Of a stretch of 64,000 bases of DNA, positions 9,200-14,327 are shown piece by piece. The notes beneath the pieces were generated by a model. It had not been told where the DNA came from, did not search any database, and was given only the letters and a program-made list of their open reading frames with translations. Both the position numbers and the translations under genes were made by a program. This stretch comes from a virus. The stretch lies in IMG/VR virus record IMGVR_UViG_3300035670_000027. The stretch is one strand, 5' to 3'. Every line of letters begins with the position of its first letter. The first letter of the stretch is position 1.

Positions 9200-9276
9200 T
9201 GGTACGGATGGCGGGACTCGAACCCGCAGGACTCAGATTTTAAGTCTGATATGTATACCGATTCCATCACATCCGC
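9200..9276 (-). tRNA. tRNA-Leu(TAA), short variable arm
   Basis: Cloverleaf; loop CTTAAAA; encoded CCA. Confidence 0.9.
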
Positions 9277-9284
9277 AAAATTAC

Positions 9285-9313
9285 ATTATACTAAAATTTG
9301 CTCTGAATGTCAA
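9285..9313 (-). promoter_or_regulatory. consensus sigma70 promoter
   Basis: TTGACA-17-TATAAT. Confidence 0.8.
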
Positions 9314-9440
9314 TGAACCAGTCGCAAGAGGTGGAAAAAGTTTTCATGGTATAACAACCTAGAAAGTCTCCTGTGTATATAAGCAATGCCGTGAAAATCA
9401 TCATGGCAAATATGATTGCCCAATCTTTTATTTTTTTCAT
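9291..9440 (-). CDS. 49-aa TM peptide
   Basis: Hand-translated MKKIKDWAIIFAMM...; AAGGA SD. Confidence 0.55.
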   Translation of the reverse strand: MKKIKDWAIIFAMMIFTALLIYTGDFLGCYTMKTFSTSCDWFIDIQSKF

Positions 9441-9453
9441 ATCACTATCCTTA

Positions 9454-9540
9454 TGGCGGAGAGTATAGGATTCGAACCTATGCGCCTCTTTCGAAACGAC
9501 GGATTAGCAATCCGCTACATTACCACTCTGTCAACTCTCC
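9454..9540 (-). tRNA. tRNA-Ser(GCT)
   Basis: Cloverleaf with long variable arm; CCA. Confidence 0.95.
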
Positions 9541-9545
9541 ATGAT

Positions 9546-9619
9546 TGGAGCGGCTAGCGAGAATCGAACTCGCATCCGAACCTTGGCAAGGTCCCGTTCT
9601 ACCATTTAACTATAGCCGC
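9546..9619 (-). tRNA. tRNA-Gly(GCC)
   Basis: Cloverleaf; CCA. Confidence 0.95.
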
Positions 9620-9624
9620 ATGTT

Positions 9625-9714
9625 TGGCGGAAGCGGTGAGATTCGAACTCACGGTGCCTTTCGACACGACAGTTTTCAAGACTGTTGCAATAAACCGGGC
9701 TCTGCCACGCTTCC
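9625..9714 (-). tRNA. tRNA-Ser(TGA)
   Basis: Cloverleaf with long variable arm; CCA. Confidence 0.95.
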
Positions 9715-9719
9715 TTATT

Positions 9720-9796
9720 TGGTGCCTCAGGCGGGAGTCGAACCCGCAAAATCCAGTTTCTAAGACTGACATGTATACCAATTCCATCACCGAGGC
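9720..9796 (-). tRNA. tRNA-Leu(TAG), short variable arm
   Basis: Loop CTTAGAA; CCA. Confidence 0.9.
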
Positions 9797-9797
9797 T

Positions 9798-9872
9798 TGG
9801 TGCCGAATGGTGGGTTCGAACCACCGACTTACGCCTTATCAAGACGCCACTCTACCGCTGAGTTAATCCGGC
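9798..9872 (-). tRNA. tRNA-Ile(GAT)
   Basis: Cloverleaf; CCA. Confidence 0.95.
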
Positions 9873-9944
9873 AAAACTTTATTGTACATTACCACGAATC
9901 CACTTCCAGTATTCTTCTGCTGACATGTGATTCTCCTTTATGTA

Positions 9945-10020
9945 TGGTGCCACCTGTTGGAATCGAACCAACTTCCTCGGCTCTTCAGACCGGTGCAATG
10001 ACCACACTTGCTCAAGTGGC
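9945..10020 (-). tRNA. tRNA-Phe(GAA)
   Basis: Loop CTGAAGA; CCA. Confidence 0.9.
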
Positions 10021-10022
10021 TT

Positions 10023-10098
10023 TGGTGCGCCTAGTAGGATTCGAACCTACGATCCATCGATTATGAGTCGATTGCCTTGACCGCTTGGCTATGGGCGC
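10023..10098 (-). tRNA. tRNA-CAT (probably Ile2)
   Basis: Loop CTCATAA in a CGA/TCG stem, like bacterial Ile2; identity inferred. Confidence 0.85.
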
Positions 10099-10099
10099 A

Positions 10100-10174
10100 T
10101 GGTACCCGGTGACGGGATTGAACCGCCGACATTCGCCTTGTAAGGGCGCTACTCTACCGCTGAGTTAACCGGGC
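10100..10174 (-). tRNA. tRNA-Val(TAC)
   Basis: Cloverleaf; CCA. Confidence 0.95.
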
Positions 10175-10178
10175 AAAA

Positions 10179-10254
10179 TGGGGTAACCTATGAGGATCGA
10201 ACTCATACTATCTCGGTCACAACGAGAGGTGCAGACCACTACACTAAGGTCACC
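10179..10254 (-). tRNA. tRNA-His(GTG)
   Basis: G-1:C73 pair; CCA. Confidence 0.95.
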
Positions 10255-10259
10255 ATTGT

Positions 10260-10336
10260 TGGCTACGGCGGAGGGATTCGAACCCCCAACATACAGTTTT
10301 GGAGACTGTCGTTCTGCCAGTTGGAACTACGCCGTA
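10260..10336 (-). tRNA. tRNA-Trp(CCA)
   Basis: Cloverleaf; CCA end. Confidence 0.95.
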
Positions 10337-10343
10337 TCGTTTT

Positions 10344-10418
10344 TGGCTGGGGCACAAGGATTCGAACCTCGGAATGCCGGAATCAAAATCCGGTGCCTTA
10401 CCGCTTGGCGATACCCCA
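10344..10418 (-). tRNA. tRNA-Gln(TTG)
   Basis: Cloverleaf; CCA. Confidence 0.95.
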
Positions 10419-10421
10419 ATG

Positions 10422-10892
10422 TTATGCGGCTACTGCGTACTTGAATCTGTCTGCCGCATGTGTCGCCGCCCATGCATGTGGCTTCACTAAAGGAATCACA
10501 TTGCATGTACCACGAATGTAGCCTATTGCTTCGTTGATCACACATGAAGAACCATGCATTTCATTTGGATTGATATCTAAATGAACTTCAACATGACGCC
10601 CTTCTAGTACATCTGCAAGTTTCAAATACATTTCACTTGCTTTGTACACTTCATTCATTAGTCTGAATCTTGGTCGATCAATCTTTTGGTCGTAATCTCT
10701 TTCACGATCTACTTGACCAAAGAGTTTGCATCCATTGTTGCCGTTGATATGCACTACGATTGCAGTAATGTAATCAGCATACCACACTTCACCTAAGCGG
10801 AATCGTTCTGAATCGCAACCTAGGTAAATCTTTGTTTCTGCCGACTGTCTTGCAATGTATTCTCTTACTTCTTCTAGGTTCAATTTTCTCAC
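10422..10892 (-). CDS. RNase H-like protein (DUF458-type)
   Basis: IYLGCDS, RLMNEV, VHLDIN and AATHAAD motifs. Confidence 0.75.
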   Translation of the reverse strand: MRKLNLEEVREYIARQSAETKIYLGCDSERFRLGEVWYADYITAIVVHINGNNGCKLFGQVDRERDYDQKIDRPRFRLMNEVYKASEMYLKLADVLEGRHVEVHLDINPNEMHGSSCVINEAIGYIRGTCNVIPLVKPHAWAATHAADRFKYAVAA

Positions 10893-10916
10893 GATCCACT
10901 CCTTTCGTATATTTAA

Positions 10917-10992
10917 TGGAGCGGGTAGTGGGTATCGAACCCATCTACTTCAGTTTGGAAGACTGACATGTATCCATAAACACCTTACCCGC
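10917..10992 (-). tRNA. tRNA-Gly(TCC)
   Basis: Cloverleaf; CCA. Confidence 0.95.
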
Positions 10993-11404
10993 AATACTCT
11001 ATAAACTCTTCGTACATTTTGTCGCCAAGTTTGTTGGCTTCGATTTCCCATGGATGATCTTCATAAGGTACAACATCCGAGTTGACCTTGCGTGACTTCC
11101 ATTTGGTTAATTCTTCGTTGATTTCATTTCTGACAAACTGACGAACATGAACCATCTCATGCGCCATTGTTTGAATTTGAGTGTTTTGATCATCTTCTTT
11201 GGCAATTTCCATGATGAAATAGCGTGGTTCTCCGACCACATTATAGTCATCGACATATACTGCCCCATAATCACTACTGTTTGATACAAACTTCACACGG
11301 ATATGCAAATTGGCAATCATCTGTGGAGAGAACAATCTCTCGGCAAAAAAATTCAAAGCCTTTTTCTGTTTCGATTTTATTCGTGAACCATAGAGATTTA
11401 GCAT
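10985..11404 (-). CDS. putative zinc metallopeptidase
   Basis: AHEMVH (HExxH) and PWEIEA motifs. Confidence 0.8.
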   Translation of the reverse strand: MLNLYGSRIKSKQKKALNFFAERLFSPQMIANLHIRVKFVSNSSDYGAVYVDDYNVVGEPRYFIMEIAKEDDQNTQIQTMAHEMVHVRQFVRNEINEELTKWKSRKVNSDVVPYEDHPWEIEANKLGDKMYEEFIEYCG

Positions 11405-11446
11405 ATCAACCTCCTTTCATCACATATTTATCCATTACAATATTTC

Positions 11447-11523
11447 TGGTCGGAGATGCAGGATTCGAACCTGCGACCCTCTGCTCCCAAAGCAGATGCG
11501 CTACCAGACTGCGCTAATCTCCG
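11447..11523 (-). tRNA. tRNA-Pro(TGG)
   Basis: Cloverleaf; CCA. Confidence 0.95.
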
Positions 11524-11527
11524 AAAT

Positions 11528-11601
11528 TGGTGCCCTTGGTCTGAATCGAACAGACAGTCACGGATTACAAAACCGTTGGTTTACCACTAACCGACAAGGG
11601 C
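11528..11601 (-). tRNA. tRNA-Thr(TGT)
   Basis: Cloverleaf; CCA. Confidence 0.9.
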
Positions 11602-12531
11602 AATGTTACTCATTTGCTTTTCGACCATCTCAACATACTGGTCTTTTACTTTCTCGCCATTGTTCTTGTATAAGTCACAAGCACAATAGGCACAATTCTT
11701 ACCGACAACCAAATAATTCAGTACAATGTGTTTATAATTCTGATTCATGCTTTCGTACTTAAAAAACTCAGTTACATCAACACCGTTCTTCCAAAGCAAA
11801 TCAATTGAATTGAACACTAACGACCTTTGGTCGAAATGCTTCAAACCGTTCACTTGCAAAAACTCCATGTACTTTTCAGGATTCAATCGTATCAGACTAT
11901 ACAGTATGCTATAAACTGTTCCTAATTTATGCGACAACTCTCTTGAAATAAACAAGTCTGCAACATCGCTAACTAAACCATATTTTGATACATCGTTAAT
12001 TGCACCTTTGTCCCAAAGAAAGTTCCAGTCATTTCGAATCATGTAGTCTAGCAAGTCTCTAAGTCTACTAGGTTCTCCATCATTTGTCAAGTATGAATAC
12101 CTACCACATTTGTAATCTAGCATGTAATACGACTGAGCATTTTCCTCATCATATAACACATAGTCTAGCACATCTACCGATGAAAACTCAAAGATGGTAG
12201 AGTTTAAAACAATTGTTCCTTCTTTGACACCACATGTGCCAATGAAGTCTGGAAAGAATGGCTGATACTTCTCTTGAAAAATGCCAGTCTTACCTTTGAA
12301 ACATTTTTTTGCTACTTGATATCCTAAATAAAAGATATCAGTCTTTTCTAAAATCTCATATCTGAGATCATCGAATTCTAGCATTGTGTGATAACGATAT
12401 GGAACACCAACGCCTTTGTAGTAACACTTGTTACCTTTTGAAACTCTGCCATTAATGTGTTGAATATCATCATCAATACTCAACTCATTTATCTGCACAC
12501 CTAACGAATCATAAATCGGAACTATAGTCAT
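11587..12531 (-). CDS. hypothetical protein inside the tRNA array
   Basis: 314-aa ORF with SD; CAYCAC motif. Confidence 0.8.
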   Translation of the reverse strand: MTIVPIYDSLGVQINELSIDDDIQHINGRVSKGNKCYYKGVGVPYRYHTMLEFDDLRYEILEKTDIFYLGYQVAKKCFKGKTGIFQEKYQPFFPDFIGTCGVKEGTIVLNSTIFEFSSVDVLDYVLYDEENAQSYYMLDYKCGRYSYLTNDGEPSRLRDLLDYMIRNDWNFLWDKGAINDVSKYGLVSDVADLFISRELSHKLGTVYSILYSLIRLNPEKYMEFLQVNGLKHFDQRSLVFNSIDLLWKNGVDVTEFFKYESMNQNYKHIVLNYLVVGKNCAYCACDLYKNNGEKVKDQYVEMVEKQMSNIALVG

Positions 12532-12543
12532 ATGTTATCCTTT

Positions 12544-12618
12544 TGGTGGTGATGGCAGGAGTCGAGCCTGCAACCTCTGCCGTATGAAGGCATTGCACTA
12601 CCATTGTGCTACATCACC
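12544..12618 (-). tRNA. tRNA-Met(CAT), probably elongator
   Basis: Cloverleaf; CCA. Confidence 0.85.
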
Positions 12619-12625
12619 TATACTT

Positions 12626-12809
12626 AGCCATTAGTGAGAGTACTGCCATATCCGTTTAATGCCTTTAGATAAAACGGCATCTCTTACCTTAGTAACCATC
12701 TATCGAGGCTGACTAATTCCTCATCTAGGCGATGGCGGTAGAGAGCGGTATTCCCTCGGCAGTCAGGTCGCTAGTCAAGCACCTCGCTTTCGGACTCTCA
12801 CTAATGGCT
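12626..12809 (-). ncRNA. ~180-nt structured RNA closed by a 16-bp stem
   Basis: Perfect inverted repeat AGCCATTAGTGAGAGT at 12626-12641 / 12794-12809; nested internal stems. Confidence 0.7.
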
Positions 12810-12879
12810 CCAGAGGTAGGGATCGAACCTACGACACACGGATTAACAGTCCGCTGATCTACCGCTGATCTACTCTGGA
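12805..12879 (-). tRNA. tRNA-Asn(GTT)
   Basis: Cloverleaf; CCA. Confidence 0.95.
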
Positions 12880-12880
12880 A

Positions 12881-13112
12881 CAGGTGCTTCCTCTCTGCGG
12901 CGGTAATTATAGTCTATGTGGTCTTTGCTTTCGCTATACATAAACCTTCCACCCGCTCCTCGACCAGAGAGGATTGTCGCATTGCCAGCGCCGGTTCGGT
13001 TTGACCTGCCCTTGTGAGGCAATCTCATTTTCCATGAGATGGAACCACCCATGAGTAACGAACTCATTTCTCCTTCCTGCGGGTCACAGTAGCCAAGCGT
13101 TACCTCGGCGGG
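12881..13112 (-). ncRNA. ~230-nt multi-hairpin RNA, possibly manA-motif-like
   Basis: GC-rich, at least six stems and a candidate pseudoknot; family assignment from memory of size and context only. Confidence 0.65.
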
Positions 13113-13114
13113 GT

Positions 13115-13191
13115 CGGTAGCAGAGGCAGGATTCGAACCTGCGATTCTCGGCTTATGAGACCAAGCGGATAGACCTCTTCCATACTCTGCG
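13115..13191 (-). tRNA. tRNA-fMet-like (CAT), genomic end CCG rather than CCA
   Basis: C1:U72 mismatch; loop CTCATAA. Confidence 0.8.
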
Positions 13192-13196
13192 AAACT

Positions 13197-13271
13197 TGGC
13201 GGTCTCAACGGGAATCGAACCCGTCCCTGCGCCGTGACAGGGCGCTATACTAACCGATATACTATGAGACC
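13197..13271 (-). tRNA. tRNA-Asp(GTC)
   Basis: Cloverleaf; CCA. Confidence 0.95.
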
Positions 13272-13281
13272 AATATTTAGT

Positions 13282-13310
13282 ATTGTACAACAAAAAACTT
13301 GATTTGTCAA
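13282..13310 (-). promoter_or_regulatory. internal sigma70 promoter in the tRNA array
   Basis: TTGACA-17-TACAAT. Confidence 0.75.
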
Positions 13311-13311
13311 G

Positions 13312-13385
13312 TGGTAGGGGCACGGAGAATCGAACTCCGGTTAATAGGTTAAAAGCCTACTACTTTGCCACTAAGTTATACCCCC
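13312..13385 (-). tRNA. tRNA-Lys(TTT)
   Basis: Cloverleaf; CCA. Confidence 0.95.
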
Positions 13386-13393
13386 ACAAAATC

Positions 13394-13468
13394 TGGCACC
13401 ACCTGAAGGAATCAAACCCTCAACTCAAGGTCCGTAGCCTAGCGTGATATTCATTTCACTAAGGTGGT
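13394..13468 (-). tRNA. tRNA-Arg(ACG)
   Basis: Cloverleaf; CCA. Confidence 0.9.
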
Positions 13469-13475
13469 ATAAAAC

Positions 13476-13553
13476 TGGAGTGAGGAGTGGGATTCGAACC
13501 CACGATACAAGAGTTTTGCAGGCTCCGCCATTTGACCGCTCTGGCATCCTCAC
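13476..13553 (-). tRNA. tRNA-Cys(GCA)
   Basis: Cloverleaf; U73; CCA. Confidence 0.95.
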
Positions 13554-13558
13554 ATGAA

Positions 13559-13634
13559 TGGTGGAGAGTATCGGGTTCGAACCGATGACCTCCTGCTTGC
13601 AAAGCAGGCATTCTCCCAACTGAACTAACTCCCC
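13559..13634 (-). tRNA. tRNA-Ala(TGC)
   Basis: G3:U70 pair; CCA. Confidence 0.95.
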
Positions 13635-13740
13635 ATATTGAAGCACACCGACAGTATCGAAACTGCCCACACCGCCGAAAGACGATGCTAGGTCCACTCC
13701 CAAGGCCGGCGCCGTCTAGCCTTAGTGTGCTTCAATATGG
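13633..13740 (-). ncRNA. ~108-nt tRNA-like RNA with a 16-bp terminal stem and no anticodon arm
   Basis: CCATATTGAAGCACAC inverted repeat; D-like, V-like and TTCGAT T-like hairpins. Confidence 0.7.
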
Positions 13741-13825
13741 TGGGTGGTGATGGTAACGCTCCACGAGGCAACTTCCGATCTTATTATGCCGACGGTTTTA
13801 CAGACCGCTGACCGGGGCACCACCC
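13738..13825 (-). tRNA. aberrant D-armless tRNA-Tyr(GTA)
   Basis: 8-bp acceptor, GCGGT-CTGTAAA-ACCGT anticodon arm, long variable arm, 4-bp T stem, A73-CCA. Confidence 0.75.
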
Positions 13826-13833
13826 ATAAACTT

Positions 13834-13970
13834 CCATTTGAAATGCTGACTGCACTATTTGCTATACCTCATATGCTTTATCTAGAATTACATCTTATCG
13901 GTATAGTTACTCAGGCGTTGCACCGCCCATGGCTTACAATCAGCATATCAAATGGTGCCCACCGGGCACC
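13834..13970 (-). ncRNA. ~120-nt three-way-junction RNA preceded by a mini-hairpin ending CCA
   Basis: CCATTTGAwATGCTGA inverted repeat extended to about 20 bp; two internal stems. Confidence 0.65.
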
Positions 13971-13977
13971 GAAACTT

Positions 13978-14154
13978 TTACAATTTATCAGCAATCTCAA
14001 CTTCGAAACACAATCGATTCGAAATTGTTCTTGCCACTTGAATCCAAAACAAACTTCTTTCAGATTCTAATTTATCGAAAACAAACTTTACGATTTTGAC
14101 ATTATCAAAGTCGCACTCTTTTTGAATCAACTCAACAGTCTTATCAACTTTCAT
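13978..14154 (-). CDS. small hypothetical protein
   Basis: Start MKVDKTV with GAGGA SD. Confidence 0.6.
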   Translation of the reverse strand: MKVDKTVELIQKECDFDNVKIVKFVFDKLESERSLFWIQVARTISNRLCFEVEIADKL

Positions 14155-14175
14155 TTGTTTCCTCTCAAAATTAAG

Positions 14176-14250
14176 TGGTACACCGTAGGGGAATCGAACC
14201 CCTCTTACCGCCGTGAAAGGGCGGTGTCCTAACCGATAGACGAACGGTGC
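14176..14250 (-). tRNA. tRNA-Glu(TTC)
   Basis: Cloverleaf; CCA. Confidence 0.95.
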
Positions 14251-14251
14251 A

Positions 14252-14327
14252 TGGCCTGCCCGGCAGGAATCGAACCTGCGACCCATTGCTTAGAAGGCAA
14301 TTGTTCTATCCTCTGAACTACGGGCAG
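14252..14327 (-). tRNA. tRNA-Arg(TCT)
   Basis: Cloverleaf; CCA. Confidence 0.95.

Follow-up and report, generated by a model that had tools for sequence, protein, structure and literature searches.

A D-armless tRNA-Tyr-like gene in phage tRNA arrays, with a predicted pseudoknot in place of the D arm

The window (the whole stretch of DNA analysed, 64,000 nucleotides of IMG/VR virus record IMGVR_UViG_3300035670_000027) is phage DNA: it has matches to PHROG families, a ribonucleotide reductase, a DnaB-type helicase and a family B polymerase, and its cultured-phage relatives are distant only (T4-like or jumbo). ARAGORN finds 25 tRNAs at 9200-14327, all on the minus strand, which cover 19 amino acids and leave Tyr alone absent. 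In this array, at 13738-13825 on the minus strand, lies a tRNA-like gene of 88 nt that has GUA as its anticodon, carries A73 and encodes its CCA, and a search with our family model found no second copy of it in the window. The gene had been picked out by a model's sequence-only reading as a D-armless tRNA-Tyr, and the sequence given there is indeed the minus strand of 13738-13825, read as written.

The surroundings of the gene have some features of their own. CCA is encoded by 24 of the 25 neighbouring array tRNAs, the sole exception being one of the three tRNA-Met genes (13116-13191, minus strand). A 314-aa ORF within the array (11587-12531, minus strand) has no Pfam or PHROG match. The spacers that flank the gene (13633-13740 and 13834-13955, both minus strand) fold as long-stem RNAs with z-scores of -5.65 and -5.67, respectively, and 0/200 shuffles are equally stable; the CCA of the Tyr gene forms part of the closing stem in the downstream spacer RNA. 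The same stem start, ATATTGAAGCAC, lies before or after the gene in several relatives too (L011, L027, L031, L020 and L021).

Standard tRNA scanners miss the gene, as the sequence-only reading had expected: whether run in default, relaxed or mitochondrial mode, ARAGORN makes no call, and the Rfam tRNA model (RF00005, threshold 29 bits) reports nothing at 13738-13825 even at E<=10. The only ARAGORN setting that produces a call on the gene is '-mt -ps90', and that call is truncated. Measured against a canonical tRNA, the gene scores below the RF00005 threshold and has no local D hairpin, the 8-9 nt between its acceptor and anticodon stems pairing with nt 46-51. It also splits the acceptor/T arm 8/4 instead of the canonical 7/5. 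The acceptor stem, the 7-nt anticodon loop with U33, the T arm, the discriminator and the CCA are all present and backed by covariation. The parts of the gene are as follows (nt are numbered from its 5' end, and fractions refer to the 84 homologues described below).

13818-13825, minus strand: acceptor stem 5' strand, GGGUGGUG (nt 1-8), pairs with 13742-13749
13816-13817, minus strand: two-nt connector CC (nt 9-10), replaces U8/A9; CC in 74/84
13810-13815, minus strand: P helix 5' strand, CCGGUC (nt 11-16), the D-stem replacement, pairs with 13775-13780
13791-13809, minus strand: anticodon arm (nt 17-35), stem of 6 bp, loop CUGUAAA, GUA at 13799-13801; four stem pairs covary
13787-13790, minus strand: V stem 5' strand, GGCA (nt 36-39), pairs with 13767-13770
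13781-13786, minus strand: linker L2, UAAUAA (nt 40-45), A/U-rich, variable in sequence and length
13775-13780, minus strand: P helix 3' strand, GAUCGG (nt 46-51), within the variable loop, crosses the variable stem
13771-13774, minus strand: AAGU (nt 52-55), from the P helix back to the V stem; kept in 83/84
13767-13770, minus strand: V stem 3' strand, UGCC (nt 56-59); the fourth pair, A39-U56, is often missing
13750-13764, minus strand: T arm (nt 62-76), stem of 4 bp (GUGG/CCAU), loop AGCGUUA; no change within the window's subfamily
13742-13749, minus strand: acceptor stem 3' strand (nt 77-84), with compensatory changes relative to the 5' strand
13738-13741, minus strand: discriminator A73 and encoded CCA (nt 85-88); A in 84/84, CCA in 79/84

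We gathered related loci from IMG/VR and metagenomes via a neighbouring protein and four DNA patterns, and 33 distinct sequences of the window's own subfamily make up alignment A1. Further subfamilies came from two looser patterns, one combining the anticodon loop with the T arm and the other the anticodon arm with GGAAGU. A MAFFT alignment of 71 sequences (A2) misregisters some subfamilies, so a structure-anchored parse of all loci was used in its place, giving 84 distinct homologues of 86-91 nt from viral and metagenome contigs. Approximately 60 of 70 pattern matches in genome contigs were chance or an unrelated repeat, and those in L083, L155, L160 and L161 were chance matches. One further sequence, L162:1418-1493 (minus strand), is tRNA-like and shares AAGU, the GUGGAGCGUUACC T arm and the ACCA end, but an anticodon arm with GUA is missing; the family model gives the sequence 24 bits.

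The homologues support each conventional stem. The acceptor stem is 8 bp long, with pairs 3-6 covarying widely and pair 8 switching from G-C to U-A in 4 sequences, while T-stem pair 3 switches from G-C to A-U in 2 sequences (L270 and L287, as GUAG/CUAU). The 8/4 fold that had been read from the single sequence is thus upheld by covariation in both of its stems. Outside the window's subfamily, T-stem variants also include CCAC and CCUC, and the T loop varies across subfamilies as A/U/C-GC-G/A-U/A-UA, without TTC. The anticodon stem is 6 bp, which refines the stem originally drawn, and its pair 17-35 alternates between G.U and A.C. Its loop, CUGUAAA, is invariant, also in a scan that did not require the loop.

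The segment that occupies the D position, CCGGUC, had been proposed to pair with GAUCGG in the variable loop, and covariation in homologues had been named as the check. Compensatory changes are present, and the pairing is no chance event. On A1, 96.4% of cells are paired across the structure, 0/500 shuffles reach the observed covariation, and shifted registers lower the pairing to 34-58%; the P helix itself is 99.5% paired, with four pair types at each of three pairs. Across the 84 homologues it occurs in 31 distinct variants and is perfect in 82, compared with a permutation mean of 9.5 and maximum of 20 (2000 permutations). An earlier parse of 71 sequences, made without a pairing filter, has a perfect P helix in 70.

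The V stem consists of 3-4 bp (nt 36-38/39 with nt 56/57-59). It is invariant in the window's subfamily and takes nine complementary types across subfamilies: GGC/GCC, ACC/GGU, ACU/AGU, CCU/AGG, CCC/GGG, GUC/GAC, GCC/GGC, GUG/CAC and GCU/AGC. It was found in 84/84 homologues against a permutation mean of 36. A pseudoknot of the "H-type" is one in which the strands of two helices interleave. The P and V strands do so, and each helix is independently supported (31 P variants, 9 V variants), so the core is an H-type pseudoknot.

Other folding approaches agree in part. Three of the helices (acceptor, P and anticodon) also emerge independently from RNAalifold when it is given the first 33 sequences. 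Where we place the V stem and T arm, the program draws a 3' hairpin (nt 54-68), but compensatory V-strand changes across the wider subfamilies break this hairpin and therefore rule it out. The single-sequence minimum-free-energy fold is a different structure with z = -1.5, which is uninformative. That unremarkable fold, together with rejection by the scanners, is what one might expect of a decaying tRNA-Tyr pseudogene with fortuitous pairing. Covariation refutes such an explanation, since 84 homologues keep every helix with the anticodon loop and A73 invariant, and a canonical Tyr gene is almost never found alongside; we give it next to no chance. The re-wired architecture set out in the sequence-only reading (no D arm, an 8/4 split and the variable loop reaching into the D position) shows covariation in all of its helices, the V stem included, and the replacement of the D arm by a pseudoknot is almost certainly real. 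Within this core, AAGU may contact the minor groove at the invariant C-G pairs of the P helix.

The tRNA content of the arrays bears on what the gene does. In five large relatives of the window, an RF00005 search combined with an ARAGORN reading of the arrays gave no canonical Tyr in any; three lack only Tyr, and each of the five holds one copy of the gene. Among them is a 357-kb contig, rated 100% complete, with 19 amino acids covered and only Tyr absent. More broadly, the 164 loci with the gene contain 2303 ARAGORN tRNAs, of which 3 are canonical Tyr while each other amino acid has 67-204, and this disparity argues that the gene serves as the phage tRNA-Tyr. Where arrays have at least 15 tRNAs, 79/80 are without a canonical Tyr. 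The argument that this is the only Tyr candidate, and hence not a pseudogene, therefore holds in the window and generalises beyond it, and the canonical tRNA-Tyr elsewhere that would have spoken against it amounts to those 3 genes. They lie at L065:3786-3870 (minus strand), L091:6143-6228 (plus strand) and L127:8112-8195 (minus strand). Both forms can therefore coexist, and these three contigs could represent transitional states or redundancy.

Identity elements point the same way. In bacteria, the Tyr identity set is A73, U35 and G1-C72, carried by a tRNA of class II (PMC9976931), and the gene agrees with it. The elements that had been recognised in the gene, A73, G1-C72 and the GUA anticodon (G34/U35) together with a long variable arm, recur in its homologues: A73 in 84/84, G1-C72 in 82/84, a variable stem of 3-4 bp in 84/84 and the CCA in 79/84. 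When we scanned with the anticodon left free, GUA was present in 93/93 real matches, and the anticodon arm is nearly identical to that of ordinary phage tRNA-Tyr genes. The gene is single copy at each locus searched, lies on the tRNA strand and is 5-9 nt from adjacent tRNAs. A search for a TyrRS gene (PF00579) in the five large relatives found none, so a host enzyme would have to charge the gene product. Taken from sequence comparison, the gene probably supplies the phage with a functional tyrosine tRNA, one whose scaffold is non-canonical.

Two other roles deserve consideration. The RNA might be charged with an amino acid other than tyrosine and recode UAY codons, resembling allo-tRNAs and tRNA-Sec, which SerRS charges whatever their anticodon. 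Its 8/4 acceptor/T arm and long variable arm are of that kind, and allo-tRNAs with mismatched anticodons are known (PMC7609411). However, the discriminator is A in 84/84 rather than the G73 of Ser or Sec tRNAs, G3.U70 is absent, the anticodon-free scan links the scaffold to GUA, and the arrays would be left without any Tyr decoder, making recoding very improbable.

The other role is that of a tRNA-Tyr mimic outside translation, i.e., a decoy or sponge for tRNA-Tyr nucleases or tRNA-binding factors, or a charged regulator that never reaches the ribosome. Titration is a known mode of action because PtuAB toxicity is neutralised when tRNA-Tyr, of either origin, is over-expressed (PMC12673091). 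Conservation of the 3' domain also far exceeds what neighbouring tRNAs show: between G50 and C77 (28 nt) there are zero changes in the window's subfamily, compared with 74-84% column identity and variable T stems for ordinary tRNAs at the same loci. This suggests a dedicated binding surface, and the near-invariant domain could bind a protein in some function besides translation. Furthermore, having no D loop and a non-TΨC T loop removes the usual elbow contacts. A mimic would nonetheless leave unexplained the near-absence of canonical tRNA-Tyr from arrays that cover the other 19 amino acids, and the gene keeps its anticodon loop, A37/A38, A73, CCA and 12-bp acceptor/T stack, all of which matter for charging and decoding. 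We therefore consider a role outside translation unlikely, and a working tyrosine tRNA is the reading we prefer.

Some contigs that carry members of the family were binned with MAGs of Verrucomicrobiales, Lachnospiraceae, Bacteroidales, Bacilli and Crocinitomicaceae. In one Verrucomicrobiales MAG, the gene sits in an accessory tRNA array on a 1.28-Mb contig and a normal tRNA-Tyr is present elsewhere in the MAG, so the unusual form is a feature of mobile arrays rather than the tRNA of the host itself. Megablast and blastn searches of cultured phages with the locus gave no match, and that collection holds no close member; matches to subfamily queries were only the anticodon arms of ordinary tRNA-Tyr genes.

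The scaffold is also seen with a second anticodon. Two UCU (Arg) paralogues, at L234:8255-8342 (plus strand) and L193:4885-4971 (minus strand), lie in Verrucomicrobiales-binned arrays and are likewise D-armless, 8/4 and pseudoknotted. Between the two, the P and V helices diverge through compensatory changes, one of them has a normal T loop (UUCGAUU), and ARAGORN calls neither. Related arrays may hold further odd tRNAs: ARAGORN reports a 95-nt tRNA-Ile(UAU) at L041:2327-2421 and irregular anticodon loops at L039:11169-11240 and L043:9502-9575 (the 4-nt 'tgat' and the 2-nt 'ta').

Among known tRNAs, the closest comparison is with class II tRNA-Tyr (RF00005), e.g., that of Aeromonas phage CC2, an ordinary gene at L163:1474-1564 (JX123262.1 199538-199628) which is unannotated in its record. 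Our gene and class II tRNA-Tyr share the loop CUGUAAA, a near-identical anticodon arm, A73, G1-C72, CCA, a stem in the variable-arm position and a location in phage tRNA arrays. They differ in that our gene has no D hairpin or D loop, is 8/4 rather than 7/5, has the T loop AGCGUUA instead of TΨCRANN, and pairs its variable loop with nt 11-16. The D stem of the CC2 tRNA-Tyr, CUAC/GUAG, is the core of many P helices (CCCUAC/GUAGGG). There are thus hints that the P helix may descend from a D stem that has lost the D loop and its own 3' strand.

Metazoan mitochondrial D-armless tRNAs (tRNA-Ser AGY, and those of nematodes and mites) also have a short connector in place of the D arm (PMC7609411). 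They are small and floppy, lack a long variable arm or pseudoknot, and are served by adapted mitochondrial factors, whereas our gene is 86-91 nt, G+C-rich, rigidly paired and found in phages of bacteria. The connector in our gene does not behave as in the mitochondrial forms, being paired in a 6-bp helix with the variable loop.

Resemblances to tRNA-Sec and allo-tRNAs (8/5, 9/4, 8/4 and 9/3 folds) include the long variable arm and an acceptor stem of 8 bp. The anticodon stem of tRNA-Sec is 6 bp, as in our gene. The 12-bp 8/4 acceptor/T domain is shared with allo-tRNAs, and a 6-bp helix in the D position with tRNA-Sec (PMC7609411). In tRNA-Sec and allo-tRNAs, however, the 6-bp D stem folds locally, as a hairpin whose loop has 4 nt, while in our gene its 3' strand comes from the variable loop. 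Our gene therefore has the long acceptor and short T stem of this group without its D hairpin; it also lacks the Ser/Sec identity base G73, and its anticodon matches its inferred identity.

Two further systems offer parallels. A T5-like phage tRNA-Tyr, which escapes the PtuAB of Retron-Eco7, likewise derives a functional novelty from an altered variable loop (PMC11555353, PMC12673091). It keeps the normal cloverleaf, with a variable loop that is longer, and escape was shown there, whereas for our gene it is hypothesised. Plant-virus tRNA-like structures (TLSs; TYMV and BMV TLS-Tyr) are, like our gene, pseudoknotted RNAs with tRNA identity elements. In TYMV-type TLSs, it is the acceptor stem that the pseudoknot forms. 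The BMV TLS is tyrosylated, but TLSs lie at the 3' ends of RNA genomes and have no part in protein synthesis (PMC9976931).

The architecture that we arrive at is as follows. Together, the acceptor stem of 8 bp and the T stem of 4 bp would add up to the usual 12-bp acceptor/T arm. Two nucleotides past the acceptor stem, with no D hairpin between, nt 11-16 begin and run directly into the 6-bp anticodon stem; they pair with six nucleotides in the loop of the long variable arm, and the 3-4-bp V stem closes round that strand. Because the 5' strands of the P helix and anticodon stem are continuous, the two 6-bp helices can stack, much as the D stem does in normal tRNAs, and would form an anticodon arm of 12 layers, as tRNA-Sec has. 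The V stem would branch where a class II variable arm normally does, and the invariant AAGU would have to run back along the P helix and may line its groove. The RNA would presumably be excised from the array transcript like its neighbouring tRNAs, after which host TyrRS would charge it via A73, G1-C72 and G34/U35, allowing it to read UAY codons.

Why such a tRNA would be favoured is a more speculative matter. The PtuAB nucleases of Retron-Eco7 and Septu cleave the variable arm of tRNA-Tyr at U47/C48 (PMC12673091, PMC13096335), and a T5-like phage tRNA-Tyr escapes them thanks to its distinctive variable loop (PMC11555353, PMC12673091, PMC13096335). The earlier idea of toxin resistance becomes more concrete because these nucleases cut the variable arm. 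A variable loop tied up in a pseudoknot, together with loss of the D arm, would alter exactly the surface that PtuAB targets, hiding or reshaping the variable arm, and the phage would retain a Tyr tRNA once the host's is destroyed. By analogy with these systems, evasion of PtuAB-type nucleases might have driven the rewiring, though we hold this only tentatively.

Reviews of non-canonical tRNAs describe D-armless forms as mitochondrial only and 8/4 folds only in allo-tRNAs with a D hairpin, and mention neither phages nor pseudoknots (PMC7609411). Our literature search, whose coverage is incomplete such that earlier publication is possible, found no description of a D-armless or pseudoknotted tRNA of bacteria or phages. 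To our knowledge, no D-armless tRNA is known outside organelles and none has a pseudoknot core. It is possible, if doubtful as a whole, that the gene represents a new structural class of translating tRNA which extends beyond tyrosine (two UCU array copies have the same scaffold). In such a class, a variable-loop pseudoknot would replace the D arm, the tRNA would work on bacterial ribosomes with host TyrRS, and it would have been selected in phages and mobile arrays as refractory to nucleases that cut the variable arm (the PtuAB of retron Eco7 and Septu).

One consequence is practical: the apparent Tyr-only gap in large phage tRNA arrays would be an annotation artefact, explained by this gene, and the covariance model from our analysis can find the missing Tyr gene. 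The scaffold may also provide a compact new starting point for orthogonal tRNA engineering. If our reading is true, this would be the first known non-organellar D-armless tRNA and the first with a pseudoknot core, the bacterial translation apparatus would tolerate a very different tRNA body, and there would be a testable link to the arms race over tRNA-Tyr, the molecule cleaved by the PtuAB of retron Eco7 and Septu.
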